Virus record (IMG/VR): IMGVR_UViG_2667527431_000001
Source of the DNA: an uncultured virus (IMG/VR IMGVR_UViG_2667527431_000001)
Lineage: Duplodnaviria > Heunggongvirae > Uroviricota > Caudoviricetes
Length of the DNA: 22,992 bases
Reading direction: 5' to 3' (one strand)
Position 1 is the stretch's first letter, and each line of letters opens with the position of its first letter. Under the pieces are notes generated by a model, which ran no database searches, was not told the origin of the DNA, and saw only the letters and a list, made by a program, of their open reading frames with translations. The translations under genes and the position numbers were made by a program. This document shows, piece by piece, positions 1 to 22,992 of this stretch.

Positions 1-62
1 CAGGCGGCTTCATATTGCATGCCGGCCTTGGTCAAAATCGTATAGAACTCTTGCGCTGCCAT
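1..62 (-). CDS. Tail fibre protein (P2 gpH-like), N-terminal fragment running off the window edge
   Basis: ATG at 62 overlaps the gpI stop (TGATG). It translates MAAQEFYTILTKAGMQYEAA, a typical gpH N-terminus, in the expected position after gpI. Confidence 0.8.
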   Translation of the reverse strand, partial: MAAQEFYTILTKAGMQYEAA

Positions 63-865
63 CACGCCTCCAACGGGTAAATAGTGGTTAACTCCCCCGC
101 GTCTACGGTGATGGACTGACAGGCCGGTTCGGCCTGTTGCTCCAGCTCAGTGACCTGCAAGGGGTGGATTGTTGTTTGCTCGCTGTAAGCACTGCCAGCC
201 GCCTCTTTGGCGGGGTAGGCGTGTTGTTCCAGCAATGTGGGTTGAAGCGGGTAAAGCGTGGTGTCTTCGGCGGTCATGGCAATGTTCGCCGCCTCTCGAA
301 CTGCACAGGTGAGGTCCATCAACGTGACTTGTAACGGGTAAATCGTGGTGACTTCACCCTCTACAACACAGGCACCGAACCGCAGGGTGCTGGTTGTTTC
401 CAGGCTGATACGCAGGAGATTCATGTGCCGACTGACCGGCTTAGTGTCCTCAATAAGCCGGATCAGCTCCTGGCACACTTTCTCGGTGAAGCCGCCATCC
501 CGAACCTCGACCTTCAGCGCATAGGTGCCCGGCTCGCGTTCAGGTAGGGTCTGCCACCACTCTTCCACGTCAATGACGTAGCCCAGGGACTCGGCCACCC
601 GTTTCAACGCGCCCACGGTGCCCTTACGCTTGTGGATCTCGAAAGAGTCTTTAATCACCTTGCGCTTGATCGCTTCCGTCCAGTCAGGGTCCCAGCGATC
701 GACACTGCGCTGAATGGCCAGCCAAGGCAGCAACTCAACCGGACAGGTGTCCGGTGAGTTCATGCGGCGAAGGACGTTTGGCAGATCAGGGTTTTCCATC
801 GACACTAGGGCCAGCGCCTGCTCCAGCGTCGTGCGATTCGACGGCAACAGGCTGGCATCACTCAT
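62..865 (-). CDS. Phage tail protein I (P2 gpI family) with repeated C-terminal extension
   Basis: The start MSDASLLPSN at 865 is preferred over the ORF-track start at 988, which overlaps gpJ. Motifs CPVELLPWLA..VDRWD..W..KR, HKRKGTVGAL, EEWWQ and KPVSRH are characteristic of gpI. Confidence 0.92.
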   Translation of the reverse strand: MSDASLLPSNRTTLEQALALVSMENPDLPNVLRRMNSPDTCPVELLPWLAIQRSVDRWDPDWTEAIKRKVIKDSFEIHKRKGTVGALKRVAESLGYVIDVEEWWQTLPEREPGTYALKVEVRDGGFTEKVCQELIRLIEDTKPVSRHMNLLRISLETTSTLRFGACVVEGEVTTIYPLQVTLMDLTCAVREAANIAMTAEDTTLYPLQPTLLEQHAYPAKEAAGSAYSEQTTIHPLQVTELEQQAEPACQSITVDAGELTTIYPLEA

Positions 866-1748
866 CGGTGCCACCGAACACCACGCTAAAGCCCGTGCAA
901 TTGGCGGCCTGATGGTCCAGCACCACCACATCCTCAACCGGGTGGACCAGCTCCACGCGCTGCACCAGCGAAACATGCAAGGCGGCATGGATAGCTGATC
1001 GACGGATATCCCGCCCCAAGCGGCGCTGGGTGTTGATATAGCGATCCAGGGACGACCGGGCTTCAGCCAGGATCAGCTCAATCTCCGGGCCCGGGTAGAG
1101 GTACAAAACAGCCTCAATCCGGTAGTCGATCAGACCGGCGGACTGGACGATCACGCGGTCGCCTAACGGCCGCACATCCTCATCACTGAGGGCCACCCGA
1201 ACCACCTCAAGCAAATCCTCAGAAGCCACGCCATCGCCAACCCGGCTAAGAATACTGACCTCAACCATGGCGGGGCTTGGACTGACGACCCGGGCATCCG
1301 CCACCCGACCATCGGCCGACATGGCGTGAAATACGTAAGCATCCCGAGGGCCAGCAATCGACAGGCCCTCAAATGCAAACAGCGTGCGCTCCACCAGGGA
1401 GTCGTCCGACTCGTATTGCGCCTCGATCGGCGGTACTGCACCAGGATCAGCGGCGACCACGGTCAGACGTTTTACGTTGTAGTTGGCCGCTAGGTGATCC
1501 ACATCGCTGCCCCGGGCAAAGGCCAACAGCAGCGCCTTGGCCGCATCGTTGATCCGCGCCCGGCTCATCATCTTGTCGTAAGCGGCCTTTTCCAGCAGCT
1601 TGACCACCGGGTCGGACTCCAGCGCTGCCGACCAGTTGTCCCCCATCAAGCCGCGAAAGTCGGTCAGCGCCTCTTGGTACAACGACTCAAAATCCAGCGG
1701 CTCCAGCACAAGCGGGGCCGGTAAACGGGACAGGTCAAGGGTGCTCAT
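858..1748 (-). CDS. Baseplate assembly protein J (P2 gpJ family)
   Basis: LDLSRLPAP, LESDPVVKLLE, RINDAAKA, SIAGPRDAYVFHA and VRPLGDRV motifs; synteny W-J-I-H. Confidence 0.95.
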   Translation of the reverse strand: MSTLDLSRLPAPLVLEPLDFESLYQEALTDFRGLMGDNWSAALESDPVVKLLEKAAYDKMMSRARINDAAKALLLAFARGSDVDHLAANYNVKRLTVVAADPGAVPPIEAQYESDDSLVERTLFAFEGLSIAGPRDAYVFHAMSADGRVADARVVSPSPAMVEVSILSRVGDGVASEDLLEVVRVALSDEDVRPLGDRVIVQSAGLIDYRIEAVLYLYPGPEIELILAEARSSLDRYINTQRRLGRDIRRSAIHAALHVSLVQRVELVHPVEDVVVLDHQAANCTGFSVVFGGTDE

Positions 1749-2071
1749 ACGTTCACTTCCAATAGCTGACTGTCGCCCTTGTAGATACCCGACAGGCGAA
1801 AAGTGATACGCCCATCAAGAACGGACAGGACTTGAACCTGCGTCAGTTCCAGACGCGGCTCCCAGCGTTTCAGGGCGCGGGCCGCCTCAGCCTGCACAGC
1901 GCTTTTCCAGCCCTCACTGACGGGCAGATCGACAAAGCGCCGGATGGTGCTGCCGTATTCCGGGCGCATTAGCCGGGACCCCAGCGGCGTGGTCAAAATG
2001 TCTTCAATGGACTGCCTCAGATGCTTAACGCCCGAGATAGGCAGCCCGGTACGGCGGTCCATTCCGATCAT
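1745..2071 (-). CDS. Baseplate wedge protein W (gpW/gp25 family)
   Basis: HLRQSIEDILTTPLGSRLMRPEYGS and RWEPR motifs; overlaps the gpJ start by 4 nt. Confidence 0.95.
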   Translation of the reverse strand: MIGMDRRTGLPISGVKHLRQSIEDILTTPLGSRLMRPEYGSTIRRFVDLPVSEGWKSAVQAEAARALKRWEPRLELTQVQVLSVLDGRITFRLSGIYKGDSQLLEVNV

Positions 2072-2075
2072 GGGG

Positions 2076-2270
2076 CTACTCCGGCAGACGCTCTAAATCA
2101 GGGTGTTTATCGAGAAATGCCTGCGCTTCGGCGTCCGACGCCTCGACGTGGTGCTTGCTGACCTGCAGCAGGCGGTCGTCGCTCATCACCAGAGTGCGTG
2201 AGATAAAAGCCCGGTCGCGGTAAACCACCGGGCTGACAGGCTTGTCGATCGGGACGGCTTTGCTCGTCAT
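2076..2270 (-). CDS. Small hypothetical phage protein (64 aa) between gpV and gpW
   Basis: ATG at 2270 with GGAG 6 nt upstream. The longer ORF-track start runs through a terminator. Confidence 0.75.
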   Translation of the reverse strand: MTSKAVPIDKPVSPVVYRDRAFISRTLVMSDDRLLQVSKHHVEASDAEAQAFLDKHPDLERLPE

Positions 2271-2285
2271 CGTTTTCTCCAGGAC

Positions 2286-2308
2286 AAAAAAAACCCGCAA
2301 AATGCGGG
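2286..2308 (-). terminator. Intrinsic terminator-like hairpin downstream of sdhC and upstream of the 2270 gene
   Basis: Minus strand reads CCCGCA-TTT-TGCGGG followed by T8. Confidence 0.8.
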
Positions 2309-2434
2309 CTGGGGGTACGGTCAAAAGGCTAGGGTTTAAGCATCAGAAACAAACACATTCAATACTGGCTGCTCAAAAGCTCAAAACTTGGCAATTCGAC
2401 CGTGAATACTTTTCGATTTTCGATTAAGGAAAAC

Positions 2435-2812
2435 TCAAGTCCAAAGCCAAACACCAGCAACAGCGATCAAGACGATAGAAATCACGAGCACAATCATAGA
2501 TCCGCGCTTACCGCCTTCCAGCGTCTCACCAACCCCCATATCCATGATGAGATGTCTTACACCTGCGACCAAGTGATAAGCCAGTGCTGACACCACCACC
2601 CAAACAACGATCTTCGCAAATGGCGTGGACAACATGGCCTTCATTTCGTTGAAACCTTCCTCGGAGCTCAGCGATTTTCCCAGGGCGTACAACAGTAAGA
2701 ACACGCAGGGAAAGAGAATCAGTCCTGAGATCCGGTGCAATATCGATGTGATAGCGGTAATCGGATACTTGAAGGTTCCAAGGTCAAGGTTCACGGGTCT
2801 TTTCTGGTTCAT
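2435..2812 (-). CDS. sdhC: Succinate dehydrogenase cytochrome b556 subunit (orphan copy, phage cargo)
   Basis: RPVNLDL, SILHRISG, YHLVAGVRHLIMDMG (haem-ligand His) and three hydrophobic helices. ATG at 2812 preceded by AGGA; an alternative TTG start is at 2818. Confidence 0.95.
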   Translation of the reverse strand: MNQKRPVNLDLGTFKYPITAITSILHRISGLILFPCVFLLLYALGKSLSSEEGFNEMKAMLSTPFAKIVVWVVVSALAYHLVAGVRHLIMDMGVGETLEGGKRGSMIVLVISIVLIAVAGVWLWT

Positions 2813-2944
2813 ATCCAATCCTGATGTAGGAAAAAGGGCTTATCTATTTGGCCCCAGTTGCGTCTCGGTGCTACGACAAAACTCGGCGCAGCTATGTCTG
2901 TAGAGGGGCGAGGCTGCCATTCATCAATGGGTACATCGCAATCC

Positions 2945-2970
2945 TAAACTAAACCAACCGGTTCAGTTTA
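2945..2970. promoter_or_regulatory. Inverted repeat, probable TetR operator
   Basis: TAAACTAAACC-AACC-GGTTCAGTTTA has 11-bp arms with 1 mismatch and lies between divergent sdhC and tetR. The right arm read on the minus strand contains a -10-like TAAACT facing sdhC. Confidence 0.7.
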
Positions 2971-3035
2971 CAGCTTAGACGCTGACCTAGCACAAGCTTT
3001 TTCGCTTACCATGCCCCTTTAATTGAGACCATCTG

Positions 3036-3659
3036 ATGAAGAAAAGAACCGAAGCTAGACGTCTAGCTATCCGCGATGCCGCAGGGCAAGCTTTCAAAGA
3101 ACTCGGATTTGAGGGCACCTCAATGGCTCACCTGGCACAGCGGCTGGGCTATTCGAAAGCCACGCTTTACTCCTACTTTGATTCCAAAGAAGAACTGTTC
3201 TATGAAGTGTTGATGGCTTCAACAAGCTCTCAAATGGATGCCATTTTTAAGATTTTAGAGAAGCCGCTATTTGAGTTACGCAAGGATTTGACATTGCTTG
3301 GCGAGAAAATTACCGAGCTCCTCTATTCAGAAGAAGTAATGGCCGTACGACGTCTGCTTTTGTCCGAGGCAGGTCGCAAGAACGAACTGGGTCTGAAGTG
3401 TTATGAGGCTGGTCCCGCTCAGTTTCTTGTTGTTATATCCCAAAGCCTGCAATGCGCTATGAACCGTGGGTTGTTGCGACAATCCGACCCTGTCGTTGCG
3501 GCGCTTCATTGGCGGGCACTTCTGGAATCCGAATGGATCGATCATTTCCTGTTCTCGACTTCAACACAGGACAGTGAGGCAAAGGTCCGGGCCACAACAG
3601 CGCGCGCCGTGGAAGCATTTCTACTGGCCTATGGTGCTTCCAGCTCGGACAAGAATTGA
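3036..3659 (+). CDS. TetR/AcrR family transcriptional regulator
   Basis: N-terminal HTH (AFKELGFEGTSMAHLAQRLGYSKATLYSYFDSKEELF) and an all-helical ligand domain ending AVEAFLLAY. Confidence 0.95.
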   Translation: MKKRTEARRLAIRDAAGQAFKELGFEGTSMAHLAQRLGYSKATLYSYFDSKEELFYEVLMASTSSQMDAIFKILEKPLFELRKDLTLLGEKITELLYSEEVMAVRRLLLSEAGRKNELGLKCYEAGPAQFLVVISQSLQCAMNRGLLRQSDPVVAALHWRALLESEWIDHFLFSTSTQDSEAKVRATTARAVEAFLLAYGASSSDKN

Positions 3660-3678
3660 CGCAGTGGCAACCAACACC

Positions 3679-4260
3679 TCAATGCTTGTGATTGGGCGTG
3701 TTGCCGCTTGTGTCGATAATTGCCCCGCCACCGTTGATATTGCCCATTACGCGTAACCCGCCGTTGATCAACACTTCACCGTAGATCGTCAGGTCGCCAT
3801 CGAGTGCAATTGCCCCGGACGTGACGACCACCGCGTTATCCGTAACGGTCGCCGATGAACCACCCACCTTGATATCCACCGAGCCGGTCGGCAGCACAAT
3901 GCTGTAACTGTGGGCCTGCCAGTCATAAGTCAGCGACCCGCCATCATCGAACAGCCAGAGCTCGACGTGATCGCGGTTATCCGGGGCGGGGCCGGCATCG
4001 CCAAACAATCCCGGTACAAAGGTGCCTTGTGAAACGTCACCACTTGGGCTGAGCAAAGCGCCCTGCTCGCCCATGCTGGGCACCCGCCAGTGCCGCGCCT
4101 TGCCCGCCGCCTGACTGTGCCAGCGCACCCAGGCACTGACCCATTCGCCGTCCGACACCCGGCACACGGGCGGCATGGTCGCAAGGTCCAGGGCGACCAC
4201 ATAACAGCCCTTGACCACCCCGGCGATCATGCGGTCGTGTTCGGCAAGTGCGTGGCTCAT
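3679..4260 (-). CDS. Baseplate assembly/spike protein V (P2 gpV family)
   Basis: WVRW..AAGKARHWRVPSMGEQ..LLSPSG motif, beta-helix-like repeats and a terminal HxH iron-binding motif (NHKH). Confidence 0.93.
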   Translation of the reverse strand: MSHALAEHDRMIAGVVKGCYVVALDLATMPPVCRVSDGEWVSAWVRWHSQAAGKARHWRVPSMGEQGALLSPSGDVSQGTFVPGLFGDAGPAPDNRDHVELWLFDDGGSLTYDWQAHSYSIVLPTGSVDIKVGGSSATVTDNAVVVTSGAIALDGDLTIYGEVLINGGLRVMGNINGGGAIIDTSGNTPNHKH

Positions 4261-4748
4261 GGGTCAACCTCAACATTCACGCTGAACACCAGCGAACCGG
4301 GCGGCTCATCCGGCCACGGCCATTCCGTTTCACCTAGGTAAATCGTCTGGGTCCACTCCACCAGCCACACGGTGTAGCCATCAAGCTCCGGGCGGGTCCA
4401 GTCCTGGGTTGAACGCTTGAACTCGGCAGGCTCAACCGCCAGCCCCCACGTCTGAGCGCGCAACAACACCGCCAATTGCGTGGCAAGGTGAATGGCCTGC
4501 TGGTAATGCTGATCACGGATCACATCAACAATCACCCGTGCTTCAAAGGTAACGTTCAGCGTGCTTTCGCCGGTGCCGATATCGGTACCCGGCTCGATCT
4601 CGGCGATGTCGAGAAATACGGCTGGCAGCGGGATGTGCTGCTCGATGTCAGGCCAGAAGCGGACCAACTGAACACCTGACAGCTGCTCTTGCAGATGCTG
4701 TTCAATGGTTTGATACAACAGGTCGAGGCTAAACGGCTGTTCAGACAC
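4257..4748 (-). CDS. Probable tail completion/terminator-type structural protein
   Basis: Lies between the gpZ-like gene and gpV with overlapping start/stop codons. Has the LPAVFLD and WLVEWTQTIYLG pattern seen in such neck/tail proteins. Confidence 0.65.
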   Translation of the reverse strand: MSEQPFSLDLLYQTIEQHLQEQLSGVQLVRFWPDIEQHIPLPAVFLDIAEIEPGTDIGTGESTLNVTFEARVIVDVIRDQHYQQAIHLATQLAVLLRAQTWGLAVEPAEFKRSTQDWTRPELDGYTVWLVEWTQTIYLGETEWPWPDEPPGSLVFSVNVEVDP

Positions 4749-5406
4749 GGCGCGTCCCCTTCAGGTATTTCTGCAGTTCAAAGTTCATTTCTTGCCGGAG
4801 AATCTGCAGCAGGCGCTCATCGGCCTTGCGGCTCCAGGTTTCAAAATGCGGCCGTACTGAATCCAGTGAAATCTTGGCCTTGGCCAACGGAAAGCGATCG
4901 CTGTTTTCCCCCACAAAACCGGAGCTGGCCCCGGTCTGCGAAGTGACTTCGCTGTCGGGGTAGTCGGCCCGGGCGAAGTGTTTACTGGCGGTACGAATCC
5001 AGATATCGGCCTGATTGCCGTACACCTTTTTGTAGAAGGCGCCGCGATAGCGCCGACTACCCACTGATACACCGGCCTTGGTCTGCCGTGGGCGCCCTGT
5101 CCGGCTGGCTTCCAGCGGGTTGATACCGAACCAGAGCTTGCCGCGCATCGCCCCGCCGGCGATCGGGTAGCTGCGCAAACGCTGCCGCACCGCCTTGACC
5201 GCGATTCGCTCCTGCTTGCCAACGGCCCGGGCTATATGGGTGCTGAGCCAGCCCAAGGTTTTATTGATTGCGCGACGTTGCGCGTTGGCAGCAGCTTTGG
5301 GTATCAGGGCGGCCAGTTCCGCAAATGCTTTCAGGTCCTCGGACGAGACCTGAATATTGAACATTCCACTGCTGGCCCTGTTCTCACTAAAGCTGCCAAT
5401 GCTCAT
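4741..5406 (-). CDS. Minor tail protein (lambda gpZ-like)
   Basis: Basic protein with RAINKT and GAF motifs, located after the head-tail joining gene. Confidence 0.7.
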   Translation of the reverse strand: MSIGSFSENRASSGMFNIQVSSEDLKAFAELAALIPKAAANAQRRAINKTLGWLSTHIARAVGKQERIAVKAVRQRLRSYPIAGGAMRGKLWFGINPLEASRTGRPRQTKAGVSVGSRRYRGAFYKKVYGNQADIWIRTASKHFARADYPDSEVTSQTGASSGFVGENSDRFPLAKAKISLDSVRPHFETWSRKADERLLQILRQEMNFELQKYLKGTRRV

Positions 5407-5723
5407 GGGCGTTTCCTCAAGATCAGCGATACCAGGCCGTCGCCGCTGGGCTCCAGTTGCAGCAGGTCATAATCGCCACCACCGTCCAGCGCAGGCAGGT
5501 CGATGGTGACAAGCAATCCTTTATTCAGCCCATCCGAGTCCGCAACCCGCACGACAAAGTGCGGCTCGCGAAGGCCGGTATTGAGACGGCCAATCTGCGG
5601 CTGTTTCCACGGTGCTGAGAACATCCCCAGCACCGGCTCGGCGCGACCCTCGATGTGGCCGGTATCGCCCAGCACGTCGAAAATCACGCTGTCGATATCG
5701 ACCACCAGATCACGAATGCCCAC
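5403..5723 (-). CDS. Head-tail joining protein
   Basis: 106 aa, directly after the major capsid gene; ends EPSGDGLVSLILR, typical of this head-closure family. Confidence 0.7.
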   Translation of the reverse strand: MGIRDLVVDIDSVIFDVLGDTGHIEGRAEPVLGMFSAPWKQPQIGRLNTGLREPHFVVRVADSDGLNKGLLVTIDLPALDGGGDYDLLQLEPSGDGLVSLILRKRP

Positions 5724-5725
5724 GG

Positions 5726-6721
5726 TTACAGCTCCAGCAGGATCTGGGCACGTGGCCGGGTGCAGATATGCAGCGGGTTGGATTGGGCTTCGCCGGCCAT
5801 GCCTTTGTTGAACGGCATCGGCTCGATCTTGCTGTAGTACGGGATGCCCTGGGTGTTGACCGTTTCCATGTAATCGGCCGGAGCAAAGGCCGAGATATAG
5901 AGGTCAGGAACGCCTTCGGGGACCAGCAGGGCTTTGTCGTCGTGGACGAAGGCAACGCTCGCGATCTTGCCGCGATAGCGTTCCCAGACAATGCCGCCGA
6001 ACTCGAAGCTCTCGCGGGCATCACCACGCAGAGCTGCAGCTTGTGCCGAGTTGACGTAGGTCTCCTTGATTGCCTTGAGTCCCATCATCTTGTTCCAGAA
6101 ATTCTTGCCGCAGAACGCCCGGGCCCCCGTGCTGGTAACACTGCCCAGCGCATCCTCCTGCAGATCCAACGCTTCGCCACATTTGACGCGGAAGTCAGTG
6201 GACTCGACGTTCAATCCCATCGACATTTTCTGCTGCTTCACACCAAAGCGGTCATAGAGGTTGAGCAGCACCGTCTTGCCGTCAGCATCGAGAATCAGAC
6301 CATTCAAGGCACCGGCACGCTGGAACTCGTGAGTCACGTCCAACTGGCGTCGGGCTTTCAACAGTCGCGCATTAACCACGTCCTGCACCGCCTGCAATTC
6401 GCTGCGTGTGCCGAAGGCGCGAATGCCCTGAATCTCATCGGCCTTGATGGTAAAACGCTCCGGCAAATGCACGGTGTTGAACGGGATCAAGGTGCGCTTG
6501 CTGGCACCCACGACCAAACCCGAAGTACCGCGCTCACCGGCCGGTACCAGTGCCAGGGTATCGCCGTCCTTTTCGATCTGCACGGTCAGGGTGGTGATGC
6601 CCTCTTCACGAAACAGACCGAGGCTGCTCAAGCGCCCGGGTAGATATTGCTGTTCGTTGATGGCAGCGGTCAGCGAAGAAACAGAAAACGCTTCGTCGTC
6701 AAAGATGGCGATATCGGCCAT
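5726..6721 (-). CDS. Major capsid protein (lambda gpE family)
   Basis: LTAAIN, DEIQGIRAFG, FAPADYMETVNTQGIPYY and EAQSNPL..CTRP motifs; GGAG RBS upstream. Confidence 0.95.
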   Translation of the reverse strand: MADIAIFDDEAFSVSSLTAAINEQQYLPGRLSSLGLFREEGITTLTVQIEKDGDTLALVPAGERGTSGLVVGASKRTLIPFNTVHLPERFTIKADEIQGIRAFGTRSELQAVQDVVNARLLKARRQLDVTHEFQRAGALNGLILDADGKTVLLNLYDRFGVKQQKMSMGLNVESTDFRVKCGEALDLQEDALGSVTSTGARAFCGKNFWNKMMGLKAIKETYVNSAQAAALRGDARESFEFGGIVWERYRGKIASVAFVHDDKALLVPEGVPDLYISAFAPADYMETVNTQGIPYYSKIEPMPFNKGMAGEAQSNPLHICTRPRAQILLEL

Positions 6722-6740
6722 TGGGGACTCTCCAGAATGT

Positions 6741-6763
6741 AAAAACCCCGCTCGATGGCGGGG
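6741..6763 (-). terminator. Terminator-like hairpin between the head decoration and capsid genes
   Basis: Minus strand reads CCCCGC-CATCGA-GCGGGG-TTTTT. Confidence 0.65.
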
Positions 6764-6784
6764 TGCGATATAGGGGCGGTCGGC

Positions 6785-7129
6785 TTAGCGCACGATCACA
6801 AAATGTTCGGCCAGTGATTTCTCGCCCTCGGGGTCAAGCCCAGTCAAATGCGCCTCGCTGACTTCAGCCAGGCGCACCACTGCGCGACCACGGCGTACGA
6901 TGTCGGATTCGCCCAGCGGGCCGTAGAGGATGGCCACGGCGGTCTGGCTGCCGTCTTCGGCGGTGGGTACATAAGGCGCGAATTCGCCCGAGGCGGTCAC
7001 CAGCCCGAGGACTTGGCCAGCATTCAGCGCAGAGCCCGCCGCCACATTGATCGCTTCACGAGAGATGTTCCCGGCCCCTTCGGACAGCAGGAACTCACCC
7101 GCGTGCATCGGCTCTTTTTTAATGGTCAT
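6785..7129 (-). CDS. Head decoration protein (lambda gpD-like)
   Basis: EFLLSE..SRE, AGQVLG, DGSQTAVAILY and RLAEV motifs; located before the capsid gene. Confidence 0.9.
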   Translation of the reverse strand: MTIKKEPMHAGEFLLSEGAGNISREAINVAAGSALNAGQVLGLVTASGEFAPYVPTAEDGSQTAVAILYGPLGESDIVRRGRAVVRLAEVSEAHLTGLDPEGEKSLAEHFVIVR

Positions 7130-8256
7130 GCTTTTACCCCTGTCTGGACGGCGCGGCGGGCCGCATAAATGGCATTGGTGTCAGGCTGTTTGGCCTGGGT
7201 TTTCGGCGCCGGCTCATCGCTGATCGGCAGGCTGTTATCGATTTCAAAACCGCCGCCGCTGACCAGCTTGTCGAACAGACGACTGCGCACCGCTTCAGCA
7301 CTGAGCCCGGCAGCTACAAACTCCTGGGTGAACTCCGGCAAACGCGCCGCCACGCACAGGTCGCGCACGGCCTTGGCATTGGTCAGCGCGGCATTAACTG
7401 TGGCCTCGTCGGCCAACTTGGTGGTGCTGATCAATGCTTCGATCAGGTTGCTAATCCCAGCGGCCGTGCAACTTTGGGTGATCAGCAAGGCCAGCTTCGC
7501 CGAGTCCACGATGGGCGGTTTTTCGGGTTCAGGCGGAATAGGTTCCGGTGTTGGCTCAGGAACTGGCTCGGGCGGTTCATCCAATTGGGCCAGTAATGCT
7601 TGCGGTGCATGTTGGTAGCGCTGCAGTGCACCGCCCTGCCCCAGGCAAGCTTTGACGGCAACGCCCTCGCCCACTTCGTCAGCCAAGCCCAAGGCCACCG
7701 CTTCGCTGGCCGTGAGCCAGGTTTCAGCATTGACCATGCGCCGCAGTTCAACTTCGTCGATGTCGGGTGCCTTGGCCTTGTAGGCCGCGATGATGGCTTC
7801 CATCGCCTGATCCAACGCCGTGGCCACCTTACGCAAATCTTCGGCATCACCTGCGGCGTAGGTCCACGGGTTGTGGATCATCAGCATGGCATTGGACGCG
7901 ATCACCACGCGGTGCGCGCCACACACCGCGACACTGGCCGCGCTGGCTGCCAGCGCATCTACACGGCCGGTGCAACGCTCGCCCAGGCGCGACAGGGCGT
8001 TGTGAATGGCCAAGCCGTCAAACAGGTCACCGCCGATGCTGTTAAAGGCCACAACAATTGGCGACACACCATCATCCAATGCCGCCAAGTCGCGGACAAA
8101 TTGGTTGGCAGTGATGCCCCAGGTACCGATCTCGCCGTATACGTAGACCTCAATGCTGCGTGTCTCGGCCTCGCCGCTGGCCTTCAGGCTGTACCAGTGC
8201 TTGTTTTGCGGCGCCGGTGGGTCACCGGCCTTGTTGAAAATGCGTAGCCTGTTCAT
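7126..8256 (-). CDS. Head maturation protease (ClpP-related) with C-terminal scaffold region
   Basis: YGEIG, NSIGGD, ALAASAAS (catalytic Ser), MIHNPW (His) and ETWLTASEAVALGLAD motifs, then a Pro/Glu linker and a helical C-terminal domain. Confidence 0.93.
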   Translation of the reverse strand: MNRLRIFNKAGDPPAPQNKHWYSLKASGEAETRSIEVYVYGEIGTWGITANQFVRDLAALDDGVSPIVVAFNSIGGDLFDGLAIHNALSRLGERCTGRVDALAASAASVAVCGAHRVVIASNAMLMIHNPWTYAAGDAEDLRKVATALDQAMEAIIAAYKAKAPDIDEVELRRMVNAETWLTASEAVALGLADEVGEGVAVKACLGQGGALQRYQHAPQALLAQLDEPPEPVPEPTPEPIPPEPEKPPIVDSAKLALLITQSCTAAGISNLIEALISTTKLADEATVNAALTNAKAVRDLCVAARLPEFTQEFVAAGLSAEAVRSRLFDKLVSGGGFEIDNSLPISDEPAPKTQAKQPDTNAIYAARRAVQTGVKA

Positions 8257-9737
8257 GGTGTCTCCTTATCGGCGGCCGGTTCTGGCTGGTCGACGAGCGT
8301 TTTGTAGTTGAGGCCCAGATCACGGGCACGGGCCTGATCGGCAGCGTTTTCAGCGTCGACGGTTTCAGCGTCATAGCCCGAACGCAGGACCATTTCACTG
8401 CGGGAGTTGAAGCCCGCATTGACCTCCATCATTCGCGCCTGAATGTCCTGCACCGGCTGGATATAGGCCCAGCCCTGCGGTACCCAGCGGGTACGCAGGT
8501 ACTCGCGGCGGCGTTGCGCGTAATCGTCCAATTTCAGACGACCCGCCAACACCGCCATATCCATCCATGCGGCCCGCACCGGGCGGCACAACTGGTGGAC
8601 GTACACGCCGAACTGCAGTTGCTCCAGACGACGCCGGAATTCGTTGAGCACAACCCGCAGCGCCCGGTCGTTGACCTCGCGCATATCGCCGGTGAGGATT
8701 TCGTAAGGCGTGCCGGTACCGGCGGCAGCTGCCATCAGTTGCTGCCGCATAAAGTCCGGGTAGTTGTTGCCGGCGTCCGGTGGTTTGGAAAACTCCACTT
8801 CTTCGCCAGGTCCCAGTTCCTGCATAGTCCCGGGCTCCAGCGCGACCATCGGCGTGAAGCCGTCTCGGTCTTCGGTCAACAACTGCCCTGTGACCGGGTC
8901 GCGGGGTTGCTGTGAGGCTTCGGGGGGCGGTCGGCTGATAAACCCGGCAAACAGGTTGGCCACCTCCTGACGAAACAACACCGCGTCATCGTAGTTGTCC
9001 AAGCTGCGCAAGCGCTTGAGCACCGGCGCCAAACGCGGCACACCGCGCAACTGGCCAGGCTCGACGGGCTCAAAGATATGCAGCACCTGCTCGGCCGGAA
9101 CCCGCACCAACTGGTTGTAACCGGCGTTTAGCGACGACGCATCACGGGGATGCACCCGGTACATGTGATACGCCACGCGCTGGTGAGCCGGGTTGAATTC
9201 GATACCGGCGCGGATGCTGTTGCCGTTTTTGGCGGGCTCAAACTTGTCGTGTGGCACAAACTCGGGGGCCAGTACCTGGAGCTGAAGCGGTACCGCCAGA
9301 TCCTGGTCCAGGCTGCGTGGCCGTATACGCACAAAACACTCACCAGCGGTTTCCACGGTGCGAGCAATCAAGGCCTGCTGGCCGTAGAAATCGGTCAGTC
9401 CATCGGCGTCCGACTCGTCCACCCAGTCCTCCCATAACTCCTGCTGCGCTTTGCGCAGGGCATCGTCCTCAATCTTGGGTCGCGGAGTGATGCCGGTACC
9501 GATCAGGTTGCTGACGCGCTTGTCGATGACGTTGAAGGCGTAAGGGTCATTGCGCACTGCTGCCCGCGAACGGGCCCGCAGGTTGCGCAAGGCCGGGGTG
9601 TTGATGCTGTTGATACCAACATCAGGGGCGTCCCAACTGGCCGAACGCCTGCCCTCTCCGGCCCCTTCATAACTGGCTTTGATCCGCTCGGGCAGCAAGA
9701 AGCCGTTGCGGGTCAGGGTTGGATATTGGCGTGCCAT
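8253..9737 (-). CDS. Portal protein, lambda family
   Basis: LRARSR..RND, GIEF, RPGQ-like EPGQLRGVP and YEILTGD motifs; 494 aa. Confidence 0.95.
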   Translation of the reverse strand: MARQYPTLTRNGFLLPERIKASYEGAGEGRRSASWDAPDVGINSINTPALRNLRARSRAAVRNDPYAFNVIDKRVSNLIGTGITPRPKIEDDALRKAQQELWEDWVDESDADGLTDFYGQQALIARTVETAGECFVRIRPRSLDQDLAVPLQLQVLAPEFVPHDKFEPAKNGNSIRAGIEFNPAHQRVAYHMYRVHPRDASSLNAGYNQLVRVPAEQVLHIFEPVEPGQLRGVPRLAPVLKRLRSLDNYDDAVLFRQEVANLFAGFISRPPPEASQQPRDPVTGQLLTEDRDGFTPMVALEPGTMQELGPGEEVEFSKPPDAGNNYPDFMRQQLMAAAAGTGTPYEILTGDMREVNDRALRVVLNEFRRRLEQLQFGVYVHQLCRPVRAAWMDMAVLAGRLKLDDYAQRRREYLRTRWVPQGWAYIQPVQDIQARMMEVNAGFNSRSEMVLRSGYDAETVDAENAADQARARDLGLNYKTLVDQPEPAADKETP

Positions 9738-16112: not shown

Positions 16113-16320
16113 AACGGGTACCTATTTGTTCATTCAGTTGTTGGCAGGCTGCACAGCGCGTGCAACTGGTGACGGCCAAACGGCGGGCCAAGGGAATTGA
16201 TGAATCGCAGTCCACACAAAACTCGTAAGACGCAAACACCGGCTGCGCTTTGCGCGCTGCCAGCGCTATGTCGATACGCTCCTGCACCAGGTCATTAGCA
16301 AAATCTGCGATATCAGCCAC
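16102..16320 (-). CDS. TraR/DksA C4 zinc-finger protein (PtrB-like)
   Basis: GTG start; DIADFA (DxxDxA) motif and CVDC...IPLARR...CAACQ. Confidence 0.9.
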   Translation of the reverse strand: MADIADFANDLVQERIDIALAARKAQPVFASYEFCVDCDSSIPLARRLAVTSCTRCAACQQLNEQIGTRYAR

Positions 16321-16831
16321 GGTCAGTACCCCGCGTAGTCGAGTTGACGTAGCAGGCGCGATTGAACATGCCCAGCAGCCCCTGAATACCGCGAAACACC
16401 TGCAAGCGGATCTCGGCCAGTTCGCGGTCATTGACCACACCGTCGCCGATGCTCTTGGCCCAGGTATCAGCCAAATCGGCTACCTGCCGGAAATACACGG
16501 CAAGGCCAGTGGTCAGCGTTTCGGGTATATCGTCGGTATAGGCTTCGGCCAGTTCCTGCCAGATCGTGTCGCCCACCAACGCATGCACCGCATCCAGGAT
16601 GCGGCGGTCTTTAGTCAGCTCCAGGATCTCGGCGAATTCTTGAACATTCACCGTGTGGCTTGGGTGGGTCGGAGACAGCTTGTGCTGCAGCGTGGTGGGA
16701 TTACGGCCGGTGGTGGCGGCGATGGCAGCAGCGCCACCCGGGTAGTCGCGGGCAGCGTGATACAGGGCCAGATCGAGCGGCAGAATTTCGCGGCGCGCTC
16801 GTTGGGTGCAACTAAGAGCAATACGGCTCAT
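16313..16831 (-). CDS. Phage regulatory CII-family protein (186/CP76-like)
   Basis: YPGGAAAIA...TLQHKLSP...H and DGVVNDRE motifs; downstream of cro. Confidence 0.85.
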   Translation of the reverse strand: MSRIALSCTQRARREILPLDLALYHAARDYPGGAAAIAATTGRNPTTLQHKLSPTHPSHTVNVQEFAEILELTKDRRILDAVHALVGDTIWQELAEAYTDDIPETLTTGLAVYFRQVADLADTWAKSIGDGVVNDRELAEIRLQVFRGIQGLLGMFNRACYVNSTTRGTDRG

Positions 16832-16891
16832 GGCATTAATCCTTGAATGTTGCCAGTGCCGCGCGGCGTGCTGTGGTGGTACATTTGCCGC

Positions 16892-18143: not shown

Positions 18144-19502
18144 TCAACTGTTATAAACATCATCCACAGGTGCAGGTGCAGGTGCAGGTGCAGGTGCAGG
18201 TGCAGGTGCAGGTGCAGCTTCGCTCTTATTAGAAGTATCTAACTCAGACATATTAATTTTAGATCCTAAATCTTTGGCCAAGTGTGACTTCAACATTTCT
18301 ATTTTCAATCTAGTTCTCAAATGAAACTTTTCAGCAGGATCTATCCCTAAATCTTCAGCAGTCGAAAAAACTGTATTCTTTGCCAAAATGAGCAATTTTG
18401 CCAAAGCAAGGCGTTCTTCCTGAATAGAAAAAATCTTGACCATGAAGGCATGAGCTATCCGCCAAGAATAGTAGATTGCCCCACCTACAACTGCTGCAAA
18501 GGGAAGGCGCAAAAAAAATGCAGCAACAACATCCGCAGCACTCACATAATGAGCAGATAGGAAATTCCCTGCACCATTAAATATCACTGCCACACCCAAC
18601 CCAATAACAAACGCAGGAACCACCATCAGCCGCAAATATACCGCTGCCTGCCCCTTCCCCTCTTTTATATAGTCAGAGAACTCATCTGAGATAAGACTTC
18701 TGTCGTTTACGAGTCCCGAAAGCTGTTGTTTAAGGTCGGCAACCCCATCATTTAAATTTTTAGTTTCTCTTGTTAGTTGTTGTAAATTATTTTGCTTTGC
18801 CTGTAGTTCAACAACTACGTTACTAAGACCTGCCTTCAAAGCCTCTGCATCGGACTCAAGTTCATTCAGGCTCTTTTTCCCTCTTTTAATTGCAACATCT
18901 AACTCCTCAGACTCCTTAGTCTGTTTTGAAATAACATCTACATATTCATCAATCTCTTCAGACAAGGTTTCATGCTTAACTTCTAGCGCAGCAACAGCCT
19001 CCTTCGACTCTTTAACATGTGTAGTAACTTTATAGGCGGCAGATGCAAACTCAACTAGCGTAGAGCGCATATCTTTTGGCCTAGTGAACTCAAAGCCATA
19101 AATAGTAATTGTCGACAACTTAGGCCTTGCAAGAACTCCTTTCGTACGAATAGAAAACTTTGAACAGAACTCATTCACTGATACCCAGCCACCTCTTGAG
19201 CCCACCTCTACAGTTAAAGCTTTTGACTTACCTTCTGAAGTATACAAACACAGTTCAATACTCTTATAAGCCTCACCAATAAAGTCTATTCGCCTGATAA
19301 ATACCGGGGTTGTCGTTTGGAAAACTCTTTCCCGCTTTTCTAAATCAATACTCTTTTTACCAGCCACCTGGGGAGACAACATAGGTGAAAAAAGAGGAGT
19401 AGTAGAGAAGCTCCTAGTTATGTTATCAACTGTAAATGATAACGCTTCAATATTCGAAACCAGCTCATCTAACTCAGTAGTAAATAACGTCATAGTACTC
19501 AC
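18144..19502 (-). CDS. AT-rich cargo gene: coiled-coil protein with two predicted TM helices, function unknown
   Basis: 452-aa ORF in markedly AT-richer DNA. It has a long heptad region, two hydrophobic segments (LMVVPAFVIGLGVAVIF; VVAAFFLRLPFAAVVGGAIYYSW) and an (AP)8 tail. The start could be GTG 19502 or ATG 19493. Confidence 0.85.
   Translation of the reverse strand: MSTMTLFTTELDELVSNIEALSFTVDNITRSFSTTPLFSPMLSPQVAGKKSIDLEKRERVFQTTTPVFIRRIDFIGEAYKSIELCLYTSEGKSKALTVEVGSRGGWVSVNEFCSKFSIRTKGVLARPKLSTITIYGFEFTRPKDMRSTLVEFASAAYKVTTHVKESKEAVAALEVKHETLSEEIDEYVDVISKQTKESEELDVAIKRGKKSLNELESDAEALKAGLSNVVVELQAKQNNLQQLTRETKNLNDGVADLKQQLSGLVNDRSLISDEFSDYIKEGKGQAAVYLRLMVVPAFVIGLGVAVIFNGAGNFLSAHYVSAADVVAAFFLRLPFAAVVGGAIYYSWRIAHAFMVKIFSIQEERLALAKLLILAKNTVFSTAEDLGIDPAEKFHLRTRLKIEMLKSHLAKDLGSKINMSELDTSNKSEAAPAPAPAPAPAPAPAPVDDVYNS
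18167..18217. repeat. Perfect hexanucleotide tandem repeat (CAGGTG)x8.5
   Basis: Read directly; encodes (Ala-Pro)8 on the minus strand. Confidence 0.95.
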
Positions 19503-20448: not shown

Positions 20449-20742
20449 ATGGAACGCACCCTCTCCAAAGCCGCTGCGTGCCTAGGCACTACCCGGCCAA
20501 AACTGATCAAGTTGATGCGCGAAAAAGGACTGCTCAACGAACGCAACCTGCCTGCCTTCCCGGTTAGGGACCGTGAGTATTTGCGGATAAAGGACAGCAA
20601 CTGGTTTCACGCCGAACTCGGCATGCAGTACAGCCAATCAACCCGGGTACGTCAGTCTGGCATCGCTTGGCTGGCCGAGCAGTTGGGCCTGACCCTTCCA
20701 GCAATTCCAGCAATTCCAGCTGATCACCGTGACGTGGCCTAG
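20449..20742 (+). CDS. Antirepressor KilAC (ANT) domain protein
   Basis: TLSKAA..LG..RPKL...MREKG.L....LP and TRV...GIAWL pattern. Confidence 0.8.
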   Translation: MERTLSKAAACLGTTRPKLIKLMREKGLLNERNLPAFPVRDREYLRIKDSNWFHAELGMQYSQSTRVRQSGIAWLAEQLGLTLPAIPAIPADHRDVA

Positions 20743-20908
20743 GGAATACGCTCGGCAGATCGTGGCCATGCCGACACGCGAGGAGCGCAACGCTGCGCTC
20801 CTTGAAGTGCCGGAGCATTTGCGCGAACTGACCAAGCGACACTGCCTGAATGCCTGGAACCACCCGGCCCGGCTCCAACCAAAACCGAGCACACCAGCCC
20901 ATGACTAA
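20729..20908 (+). CDS. Small hypothetical phage protein (59 aa), not in the ORF track
   Basis: GTG start; MTWPREYARQIVAMPTREERNAALLEVPEHLRELTKRHC...; fills the gap and overlaps both neighbours. Confidence 0.7.
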   Translation: MTWPREYARQIVAMPTREERNAALLEVPEHLRELTKRHCLNAWNHPARLQPKPSTPAHD

Positions 20909-21227
20909 TGCCAACCAAAGCCCTCTACGGCTGCTGCCAGCACCGGATGCGGACACCGTAGAGCTGCTGTACCGCAATTTTGGTGACGTGCTGATCCCCC
21001 TCGACAAGCTGCGCGTGCAGTACTTTCGCCACCTCAACGAGCAGTCTTTTGCGGCAGAGATCATCAGCGGCCGGATTCAAATACCCGTAATCACACTCGA
21101 CAGCAGCCGCAAGGCGCCGAAGTTCGCTCACATCCGCCACGTTGCCGCGCTGATTGATATTCGCGCCTACAAGGCTGACGAGGAGCTGGCCAGACCGCAA
21201 AGCGGCACACCGGATAAAGACGACTAG
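20901..21227 (+). CDS. prtN: Pyocin activator PrtN family protein
   Basis: TVELLYRNFGDVLIPLDKLRVQYFRHLN...GRIQIPVITLDSSRKA...HVAALID closely resembles P. aeruginosa PrtN (recalled). Confidence 0.88.
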   Translation: MTNANQSPLRLLPAPDADTVELLYRNFGDVLIPLDKLRVQYFRHLNEQSFAAEIISGRIQIPVITLDSSRKAPKFAHIRHVAALIDIRAYKADEELARPQSGTPDKDD

Positions 21228-21675: not shown

Positions 21676-21880
21676 AGAGCTGATCAAAATTAGCGAATAC
21701 CAACGCCGCCGCTGGGGTGAGAACGGGACACCGCTCTGCTCGCAAGCCATACGCAATTACATCCGCAACGGAAAGCTGCCGGGCGAGCAGATAGGCTCGC
21801 TCTGGTATGTGGACTGGAACGCACTGAACATAGCTGAAGGCAACGACCTGGTCGCTATGGTGCTAAGAGGAGTTGCCTGA
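21668..21880 (+). CDS. Excisionase-like wHTH protein
   Basis: 70 aa, IRNYIRNGKLPGEQIGSLWYVD; the stop overlaps the integrase start (TGATG). Confidence 0.8.
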   Translation: MRKELIKISEYQRRRWGENGTPLCSQAIRNYIRNGKLPGEQIGSLWYVDWNALNIAEGNDLVAMVLRGVA

Positions 21881-22992
21881 TGGCTCCACGGCCACGCAAT
21901 AGTGCGAACAAGCACCTGCCGCAGAACCTGTACTTTGATCCACGCCGTTCGACCTACCGCTACCGTCGCCCCAGCGACGGTAAGTGGTTTCAATTCGGTA
22001 CCGATCGGATCAGGGCAATTGATGCCGCAAAACAGCTCAACCTGGCCTTCATGCAAGGCGCCGATCTGGTCCGCTCTGTCATGGGTAATCCATCAGGGTC
22101 CTTTGCAGGCTTTCTGGATAAATACGAAGCCGAGATCTTACCTCCCCGCGAACTGGCCAAGGGTACGCTCGGACTGTATGCCGTTCACTTCAGACGCTTC
22201 CGAAAGCATTTTGAGGGCAAAGCAGTCGATCAAATCACCATACGCATGGTTGCCGAGTTCCTGGACACACTGACCCCGAGGAGCGCCAATCAAAGCCGCG
22301 CTCTGTTGGTGGACATTTTCAATCATGCCGCGTCCAAAGGCTTATGCCCGGACAACCCGGCATCGAGCACCATTAACCGTATCGAGAAGAAGCAACGCAG
22401 ACGCCATACCGTGGAAGGTCTGAAGGCGATCAGGGAGGTGGCCCCACCCTGGCTGCGCAACGCCATCGACTTAGCGCTGATCACTGCTCAGCGGCGCTCA
22501 GACATTCTGGACATGCGCTTTGATGGAGTAAGGGATGGTTTCCTGTACCTGGTACAAAAGAAGACAGCCAAGGCCAGTGATACGGCGTGGATTCGATTTA
22601 AGGTAACTGATGAGTTGCAGGCCGTAATAACCCGTTGCCGAGATAGCGTCGCCTCACCCTTCTTGATTCATCGCAAGCCGCAACGATTGCTGCAGAAGCA
22701 GGCGCAGACCAAAGAGCACTGGACTAAGGTTGAGGATCGCTTTCTAACGCGCTCTTTTAAAGAAGCGCGGGAAATTGCCGGCTGCTATGCAGACTGGAAA
22801 GAAGAGGAAATGCCAGGCTTCCACGAAGTGCGTGCGCTGTCGCTGCACCTGTACAAAAGAGCCGGTAAAGATGGTCAATCCATTGCGGGCCATGCCAGCG
22901 AGACGATGACCAAGAACTACCAGAAAGACCACGCCGATGTGATCTGGTCGGATGCGATTCCAGACCTGAATATCAGCGAAATCACCGGTTAG
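21880..22992 (+). CDS. int: Tyrosine integrase (lambda-type with arm-binding N-terminus)
   Basis: LPQNLY arm domain; catalytic R (TAQRRSD), K (QKKT), HxxR (FHEVR), H (AGH) and Y (MTKNY). Confidence 0.96.
   Translation: MAPRPRNSANKHLPQNLYFDPRRSTYRYRRPSDGKWFQFGTDRIRAIDAAKQLNLAFMQGADLVRSVMGNPSGSFAGFLDKYEAEILPPRELAKGTLGLYAVHFRRFRKHFEGKAVDQITIRMVAEFLDTLTPRSANQSRALLVDIFNHAASKGLCPDNPASSTINRIEKKQRRRHTVEGLKAIREVAPPWLRNAIDLALITAQRRSDILDMRFDGVRDGFLYLVQKKTAKASDTAWIRFKVTDELQAVITRCRDSVASPFLIHRKPQRLLQKQAQTKEHWTKVEDRFLTRSFKEAREIAGCYADWKEEEMPGFHEVRALSLHLYKRAGKDGQSIAGHASETMTKNYQKDHADVIWSDAIPDLNISEITG

Follow-up and report, generated by a model that had tools for sequence, protein, structure and literature searches.

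Inhibitors of respiratory complex II are widely used as fungicides and have been explored as narrow-spectrum agents against Pseudomonas. That one membrane subunit of this four-subunit enzyme can be swapped to alter its drug pocket has been proven in one fungus. According to the available part of that study, Zymoseptoria tritici carries alt-SDHC (ZtSDHC3), a dispensable paralog that shares 62.5% identity with the core SDHC, is built into the enzyme together with the other three subunits and confers resistance of up to >55,000-fold to one subclass of succinate dehydrogenase inhibitors (SDHIs) via a single residue of the Qp quinone site (PMC6941823). For bacteria, the available portions of two sources mention an sdhC outside its operon: a preprint notes an orphan sdhC of Tn1403-like transposons (bioRxiv 10.1101/2020.12.23.424275), and a plasmid paper merely names sdhC among 'other genes' (PMC8490738). 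A search of the published full-text literature, whose scope leaves out most subscription journals, returned no bacterial tetR-sdhC cassette, no prophage-borne sdhC and, in bacteria, no resistance-conferring alternative SdhC. Here, we describe such a pair of genes in a Pseudomonas prophage, a 22,992-nucleotide stretch of DNA from an uncultured virus of the Caudoviricetes (IMG/VR record IMGVR_UViG_2667527431_000001), which we call the window. The pair, an orphan sdhC and a divergent gene for a TetR-family regulator, forms a cassette at about 2311..3677. We tentatively favour, at somewhat below an even chance, the reading that this cassette provides an inducible swap-in SdhC under a ligand-responsive TetR, altering the quinone site (Q-site) of complex II as alt-SDHC does in Zymoseptoria. 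Target replacement by a subunit paralog is already known; a bacterial, regulator-coupled and mobile version would be new.

The orphan sdhC (2435..2812, minus strand) encodes a full-length protein of 125 amino acids (aa). Read from an in-frame TTG further upstream, at 2818, it would have 127 aa (2435..2818); the closest relatives start at the second Met and have 125 aa. In profile searches the protein matched the Pfam family Sdh_cyt (PF01127; 1.8e-31, 109.2 bits, cut-off 25.8), TIGR02970 (134.7 bits, cut-off 52.3, residues 5-124) and chain C of the E. coli succinate:quinone oxidoreductase (1nek_C; 1.1e-37 over residues 3-124). It fell below the cut-off of the enterobacterial equivalog model NF007021 (140.7 vs 180 bits), a result of limited meaning. 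Searching the whole host genome (G000) with PF01127 gave three matches, namely the window SdhC and the host sdhC and sdhD at G000:C1:4897062.., where sdhA comes next. Hence, as a first-pass annotation of the window had stated, there is no sdhD, sdhA or sdhB beside the orphan, and the sole host operon lies 3.66 Mb away. The prophage and host proteins align without gaps at 66% identity. Among 401 genomes of the genus, a set that takes in three genomes flagged as unpublished (G099, G151 and G370) that count in the tallies only, eight carry an orphan sdhC, which is of the TetR-linked type in three and of a transposon-linked (Tn) type in five. All eight also have a housekeeping match, so that the orphan is a dispensable extra copy, present or absent beside a retained core copy. 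Three identical sdhC matches in G118 were considered as further orphans and rejected, as they belong to full sdhCDA copies on three contigs; we took them for an assembly artefact or a duplication.

The tetR-sdhC pair is not confined to the window. Sequence searches identified a set of 125-aa SdhC proteins that are closer to the window's SdhC than any housekeeping copy. When 80 genome loci were sorted by context, 76 had the ordinary sdhC-sdhD-sdhA order. The remaining four, from P. moorei, P. paraversuta, P. kulmbachensis and Pseudomonas sp. 2024-210, had an orphan sdhC paired with a divergent TetR ortholog; G184 is a fifth genome with the pair. A metagenome scan of 73 loci gave 70 with sdhD, two ended by contig edges and one TetR pair. 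The linkage outside sdh operons is therefore recurrent, with six further loci (L047, L048, L049, L050, L035 and L143) from five Pseudomonas genomes and one metagenome contig. The TetR orthologs adjoining every TetR-type orphan sdhC are 57-84% identical, and homologs of at least 57% identity occur only in the three TetR-type carriers among the 401 genomes, the next best reaching 42%. A plasmid search did not find the TetR type; the best plasmid match was 61.7% identical.

The DNA common to these loci comprises the two genes and their spacer only. The window and P. moorei aligned over 2435-3634 at 76%, and a 1.44-kb unit occurs at 96% identity in three species with unrelated flanks. Since the flanks differ at every locus, the cassette is a small accessory unit that inserts into variable regions; we found no mobility genes of its own. 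The neighbours include an MvaT-type silencer, an IS66 fragment and SIR2/HerA genes in P. moorei (L047, 7562-9981), NucS, Dam and gpD at a prophage end in Pseudomonas sp. 2024-210 (L049, 6600-10691), an ApeA-type HEPN gene in G184 (L035, 11854-13236), and an Xre antitoxin and a Sir2 gene on the metagenome contig (L143, 5784-8216). Such defence-type and mobile neighbours are typical surroundings in variable islands.

We analysed the phylogeny of 121 SdhC rows (97 distinct) over 125 columns with a quick IQ-TREE run (LG+G4), in which most inner forks were unresolved. All 41 orphan rows (six TetR-linked, four transposon-linked and 31 database proteins without known context) fell into one clade with an SH-aLRT of 100 and a stem of 0.26 changes per site, nested within the Pseudomonas housekeeping SdhC next to P. 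putida-group sequences (weak support of 82-83). The host's own SdhC sits in a different, well-supported clade (99). The orphans are under purifying selection: the ratio of nonsynonymous to synonymous changes (dN/dS) was 0.073 for the window against P. moorei (dS 0.85), 0.031 for P. paraversuta (L048) against G184 and 0.105 for P. paraversuta against Pseudomonas sp. 2024-210, and more distant pairs were saturated at synonymous sites. The relaxed selection, with dN/dS near 1, that would have spoken against the swap-in proposal is not seen. These values bear on the idea that the cassette is foreign DNA hitch-hiking without current function. Its lack of mobility genes and the rarity of the TetR type (3 of 401 genus genomes) would fit an inert passenger, but both reading frames are intact, dN/dS stays at 0.03-0.11 at dS up to ~2, the operator is conserved, and the unit has kept its near identity across three species amid unrelated DNA. 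We consider this explanation highly improbable.

We next turned to the residues that were kept or changed, using the numbering given by the alignment to 1NEK chain C, in which the E. coli number equals the position in the 125-aa protein plus 4. Ser23 and Arg27 align with Ser27 and Arg31 of the E. coli quinone site, and His80 aligns with the axial haem ligand His84 of 1nek_C, and in the H84M mutant entry 2wu2 the mismatch falls exactly there. Across 33 distinct orphan sequences, Ser27, Arg31, His84, His91 and Asp95 are invariant and His30 is present in 32, while the N-terminal RPVNLD segment is invariant or nearly so. The SILHR motif and the haem histidine are thus intact, as the first-pass annotation had read them. 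The N-terminal segment of SdhC presumably has a role at SdhB.

Retention of the quinone-site residues is hard to explain unless the protein is placed next to SdhB and SdhD, and this bears on the possibility that the orphan works outside complex II, as a stand-alone membrane haem protein. Such a protein might form a homodimer that holds haem b via two His84-equivalents and act as a decoy for inhibitors or as a quinol-linked conduit that passes electrons to another enzyme. The duplication of the C subunit alone, with no extra sdhD in the genome, would agree with it; so would the homology of SdhC and SdhD as three-helix proteins, since the SdhD model TIGR02968 matches the orphan SdhC at 3.2e-8, and the position of a Tn-type relative beside periplasmic-type reductase genes. 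However, Ser27, Arg31 and RPVNLD, which are invariant or nearly so in the orphans, are features that matter in the context of SdhB and SdhD, and we regard a stand-alone protein as distinctly unlikely.

To find the changed residues, the 33 distinct orphans were compared with 46 distinct housekeeping proteins of Pseudomonas. All 46 housekeeping proteins have R at position 16, where 31/33 orphans have G, K or M; all 46 have I at position 18, against M or F in 32/33 orphans, and L or V at position 20, against Y in 32/33. Further positions shifted between the two groups are 40, 42, 59, 64, 76, 78, 82, 108 and 111. Relative to the host copy, the window SdhC also has the substitutions G24A, V25I and F28I, which brings the differences to 6 of the 13 residues from 16 to 28, a segment that runs into the Ser27/Arg31 motif and belongs to the helix along the quinone site. 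Differences from the housekeeping SdhC thus cluster just ahead of SILHR, in the stretch that the first-pass annotation had singled out. The housekeeping pattern that it gave, TIKLPITAYT, is indeed the commonest residue at each column of the 46 sequences, although the host copy itself reads TIKLPITGVT. Most Pseudomonas housekeeping proteins have A24, Y25 and I28, and the housekeeping SdhC of all three sampled TetR-type carriers (L002 1486-1872, L217 and L218) is of the minority type G24, V25 and F28; with n=3, these carriers may simply be kin.

Positions 20 and 28 are ones that we take, from crystal structures, to line the E. coli quinone site. In a docking model, promysalin occupies the quinone pocket and forms hydrogen bonds with Tyr83 of SdhD and, in SdhC, with Ser27 and the residue-24 backbone, according to the available part of that paper (PMC10077553). 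By alignment, then, the orphans carry changes at predicted inhibitor-contact residues while keeping the catalytic ones, the contacts being those of this single docking paper together with the E. coli structures.

The second gene of the cassette, on the plus strand at 3036..3659 and divergent from sdhC, encodes a TetR-family regulator of 207 aa. It has both a helix-turn-helix and a ligand domain, matching TetR_N (1.4e-14) and the AefR-like TetR_C_7 (6.3e-22) in profile searches, and its matches in the PDB were an uncharacterised TetR (3bhq, 2.7e-27, residues 10-201), NalC (4.3e-15) and AefR (8.2e-11). The next-nearest Pseudomonas TetRs (37-42% identity), sampled at five loci, adjoin an efflux membrane-fusion gene (three loci), PqiA (one) or a chemoreceptor (one). 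This suggests that the regulator comes from a lineage that senses hydrophobic toxic compounds or xenobiotics.

Between the two genes lies a palindrome at 2945..2970, TAAACTAAACC-N4-GGTTCAGTTTA, with arms at 2945-2955 and 2960-2970 that are complementary at 10 of 11 positions; a repeat as good arose in 14 of 2000 shuffles of the intergenic region. The spacers are otherwise very diverged, and in an alignment of six loci 15 of 26 columns were identical inside the palindrome vs 28 of 200 outside. The palindrome is the conserved island of the intergenic region and likely the operator of the TetR. A putative -10-like hexamer directed towards sdhC (TAGGAT, 2941..2946, minus strand) overlaps its end, and five of the six aligned regions have TAnnAT there, L047 reading otherwise. 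In sum, the full-length orphan sdhC, the divergent TetR gene and the palindrome in an insert of lower GC, as first annotated, were all confirmed by reading frames, profiles, base composition and empty sites.

Taken together, these features could be joined as follows. In the uninduced state, TetR bound to the palindrome between the genes would hold sdhC, and probably also tetR, at a low level. A hydrophobic toxic compound would bind TetR and release it. The alternative SdhC would then be made, compete with the housekeeping SdhC and join the host SdhD, SdhB and SdhA in newly assembled complex II. Such a hybrid enzyme would keep the haem and the catalytic quinone-site residues but have a remodelled pocket wall (positions 16, 18, 20, 24, 25 and 28), and might go on working despite a Q-site inhibitor or quinone analogue. 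The prophage would be a vehicle only, the cassette having been inserted as a moron behind gpV. Promysalin as the inhibitor, which had been suggested for this locus, is only a guess: as far as the available text goes, the promysalin papers name SdhC as the target and present a docked pose, but report neither an SdhC resistance allele nor a second sdhC in the producer, and the available part of PMC13223145 does not contain sdh.

Profile searches (Pfam and PHROG) showed that the window is a complete prophage, extending from the integrase at its right end (21880-22992) to a P2-type baseplate set. From right to left, the integrase is followed by a CI-like repressor, primase-helicase, terminase, portal, protease, decoration, major head and tail-completion proteins, and after these by the P2-type baseplate genes gpV, gpW, gpJ and gpI. 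The cassette has a GC content of 0.489 (2311-3677), against 0.574 for the remaining window. Its upstream flank is the baseplate spike gene gpV (3679..4260, minus strand; PF04717, PF21930, phrog_6142). Its downstream flank is a small phage open reading frame (ORF) on the minus strand with no assigned function (2076..2270; phrog_7077 at 6.1e-18), which is conserved in the relatives with empty sites and has an ATG with a GGAGAA ribosome site near 2270, the ORF list starting it at the TTG at 2324. Only then comes the baseplate wedge gene gpW (1745..2071, minus strand; PF04965, phrog_43). The earlier placement between gpV and the next tail gene was hence right for gpV, but the gene on the other side is the small ORF.

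A DNA search of the 401 genomes revealed three related tail clusters with empty sites, in which the flanks are separated by 14 bp (G303), 18 bp (the host's own second tail cluster, G000) and 226 bp (G007). Aligning these junctions gave the order gpV stop codon, short spacer, G+C hairpin with T-run and small ORF, and limits for the 1,367-bp insert (~2311-3677) within a nucleotide of the 2310-3678 first annotated. The intrinsic terminator at 2292..2310 (minus strand; hairpin and T-run) belongs to the phage, as the same hairpin directly follows gpV in the empty sites; because the cassette occupies the spacer between gpV and this terminator, the phage's own terminator now lies downstream of sdhC. 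The cassette ends showed no convincing target-site duplication or terminal repeat in the junction alignment. The cassette is thus a moron in the sense of an insert between conserved phage genes that is missing from three related tail clusters. As to promoter and terminator, the latter is the phage's own, and a consensus sigma-70 scan of the spacer gave no match.

The second tail cluster of the host (L137, G000:C1:1190941-1192745), which is of the P2 type and lacks the cassette, lies ~45 kb upstream of the window, has 83-87% DNA identity to the gpJ/gpW and gpV regions of the window and may represent either another prophage or a tailocin. Several ORFs close to the repressor and integrase, at 18144-19502 (minus strand), 16250-16846 (plus strand) and 20564-21064 (minus strand), one of them of 452 aa, have no PHROG match and may be further cargo or defence genes.

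Does sdhC serve the phage itself? It could reprogram or protect host respiration during infection or exclude other phages, with the TetR tied to the phage life cycle. The gene lies in the late tail operon and on the same strand, so that late transcription from gpV would read through it, and morons often benefit lysogen fitness, as stated in the available part of PMC3594210. The distribution of the pair points the other way. Among the six other loci only that of Pseudomonas sp. 2024-210 (L049) is beside phage genes (gpD, Dam), the rest being chromosomal or in islands; the three related tail clusters do without the cassette; and the SdhC has no match among the PHROG families. A collection of phages searched with window positions 1-6000 gave no DNA match and holds no close relative by protein. 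Just two of its records matched the SdhC, both at 44% identity; these are the 254-kb 'Acinetobacter phage MD-2021a' records CAKLQH020000002.1 and CAKLQF020000003.1 with an annotated sdhC. IMG/VR was rejected as a source of an independent phage carrier, its single match (100% identity) being the same prophage. We therefore rate a phage-serving gene as very unlikely. The prophage is one vehicle among several, and the pair is found mostly outside phages. For the first-pass proposal of phage-borne target replacement, this means that linkage, selection and the clustering of residue changes speak for its second half, while 'phage-borne' turns out to be incidental.

A sister branch of the orphans lacks the TetR. 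Its sdhC is 60% identical to that of the window and is located on Tn1403-like transposons and many plasmids. It is identical in the genomes of five species (G005, G011, G078, G238 and G333), where it stands beside resolvase or Tn3-type transposase genes. The plasmid search gave 139 records matching the window SdhC, and among those listed the 24 at 59.7% identity were all of the Tn type, with Enterobacter, Citrobacter, Klebsiella, Raoultella, Pseudomonas and Acinetobacter as hosts. Loci of this type include L141 (NZ_CP033797.1 5446-19817), L142 (NZ_CP146075.1), L042-L045 and L219. In two records the surrounding island is conserved and contains an AraC regulator, DUF417, DUF427, glutaredoxin 3 (grxC) and a ferredoxin reductase, and further a sulfite-oxidase-like reductase, DUF1330, a haem-binding protein and a zinc alcohol dehydrogenase. 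We take its DUF417 and AraC genes to resemble the rcl genes of E. coli.

This island favours an alternative SdhC that does swap into complex II, but whose purpose is to adjust the enzyme to particular circumstances and not to withstand an inhibitor. Redox or oxidant stress, a different state of the quinone pool, a need for lower production of reactive oxygen species, and haem or iron limitation are candidates, with the TetR possibly sensing a stress metabolite. All the support for assembly (kept residues, clade and selection) applies equally here, and the Tn-type island with its glutaredoxin, ferredoxin reductase and other genes resembles a set for redox or oxidant stress. The TetR-type cassette, however, has no such redox neighbours and differs in its flanks at every locus; the crowding of changes into residues 16-28, alongside Ser27 and Arg31, fits an altered ligand pocket better than redox tuning; and relatives of the TetR adjoin efflux genes. 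On balance, we think that such a physiological isoform is rather unlikely.

With the inhibitor-resistance reading of the TetR-type cassette in mind, both branches could belong to a single class: horizontally moved, single-subunit swap-in genes whose products render the complex II of bacteria insensitive to poisons of the Q-site, the branch under a drug-sensing TetR moving with prophages and islands and the other with Tn1403-like transposons and plasmids of Pseudomonas, Acinetobacter and Enterobacteriaceae. We put this generalization forward as a possibility, and a doubtful one. The poisons could be natural (promysalin-like or siccanin-like) or man-made (SDHI fungicides or phenolic biocides).

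Sequencing libraries provided traces of the locus. In two oligo-dT RNA-seq libraries of one study, a single contig each extended over the cassette, from 2308 to 3748 at a depth of 17.6 and from 2403 to 3942 at 21.8, and most flanking phage bins in these runs had a word depth of 0-7. A whole-genome-amplified, DNA-like library was flat at ~290. In a wastewater cDNA library (run X18, window positions 1-9000), the flanks reached 24-337 in all but one bin at 95-99% identity and the cassette 1.4-6, which suggests that cassette-free relatives of the phage dominate in that sample; no contig across the empty site was among those listed.

Several observations weigh against an inducible, inhibitor-resistant SdhC. 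In the two RNA runs, some contigs depart from the window sequence at 1534 and 3881, and as the contigs come from one study and give neither strand nor expression level, they are a weak hint of expression. The scan of the spacer returned no full sigma-70 consensus site and no -35 element could be fixed by eye, so that the promoter positions are provisional. No gene for making or exporting an inhibitor is near the cassette. The Tn-type orphan is housekeeping-like at positions 16, 18 and 20 and sits in an island of redox genes; hence, the common role of the family need not be inhibitor resistance. Finally, the pocket changes were placed by alignment to the E. coli numbering, and the choice of those that touch the quinone draws in part on the E. 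coli structures.

If the proposed function holds, complex II inhibitors already face a mobile bacterial resistance module with a sensor of its own, and the TetR together with the operator would offer a ready biosensor for finding the natural inducer. The orphan family is small and clearly delimited.

Overall, the closest known system is alt-SDHC of Z. tritici, which resembles the cassette in that the C subunit alone is involved, is polymorphic for presence and absence beside a core copy that is kept, and differs at the quinone site, with 66% identity to the core protein here vs 62.5% there. According to the available part of PMC6941823, alt-SDHC is a eukaryotic nuclear gene without a dedicated repressor, and its expression varies through transposons in the promoter. 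The cassette, known from sequence, is bacterial, has a TetR and a conserved palindrome, and is moved by a prophage and other mobile contexts. The orphan sdhC of the Tn1403 type belongs to the same clade, is ~60% identical, mobile and likewise without sdhD, sdhA and sdhB. Unlike the gene in the window, it has no TetR, lies in an AraC redox island, is housekeeping-like at 16, 18 and 20, and occurs in more than 100 plasmid records from several genera. Housekeeping SdhC (PDB 1NEK chain C) aligns with the orphan over the full length and shares His84, Ser27 and Arg31, whereas the orphan is located outside the sdh operon, forms a separate clade on a long stem and scores below the NF007021 cut-off. 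As an extra unit between conserved phage genes, with a different GC content and missing in relatives, the cassette is like the morons described in the available part of PMC3594210, but it has its own regulator, uses the phage's terminator and carries as cargo a subunit of core metabolism that has no PHROG family. Its regulator has the TetR_N and TetR_C_7 domains, the divergent target and the palindromic site of AefR/NalC-type repressors of divergent efflux genes; the neighbouring target, however, is a subunit of a respiratory complex instead of a pump.

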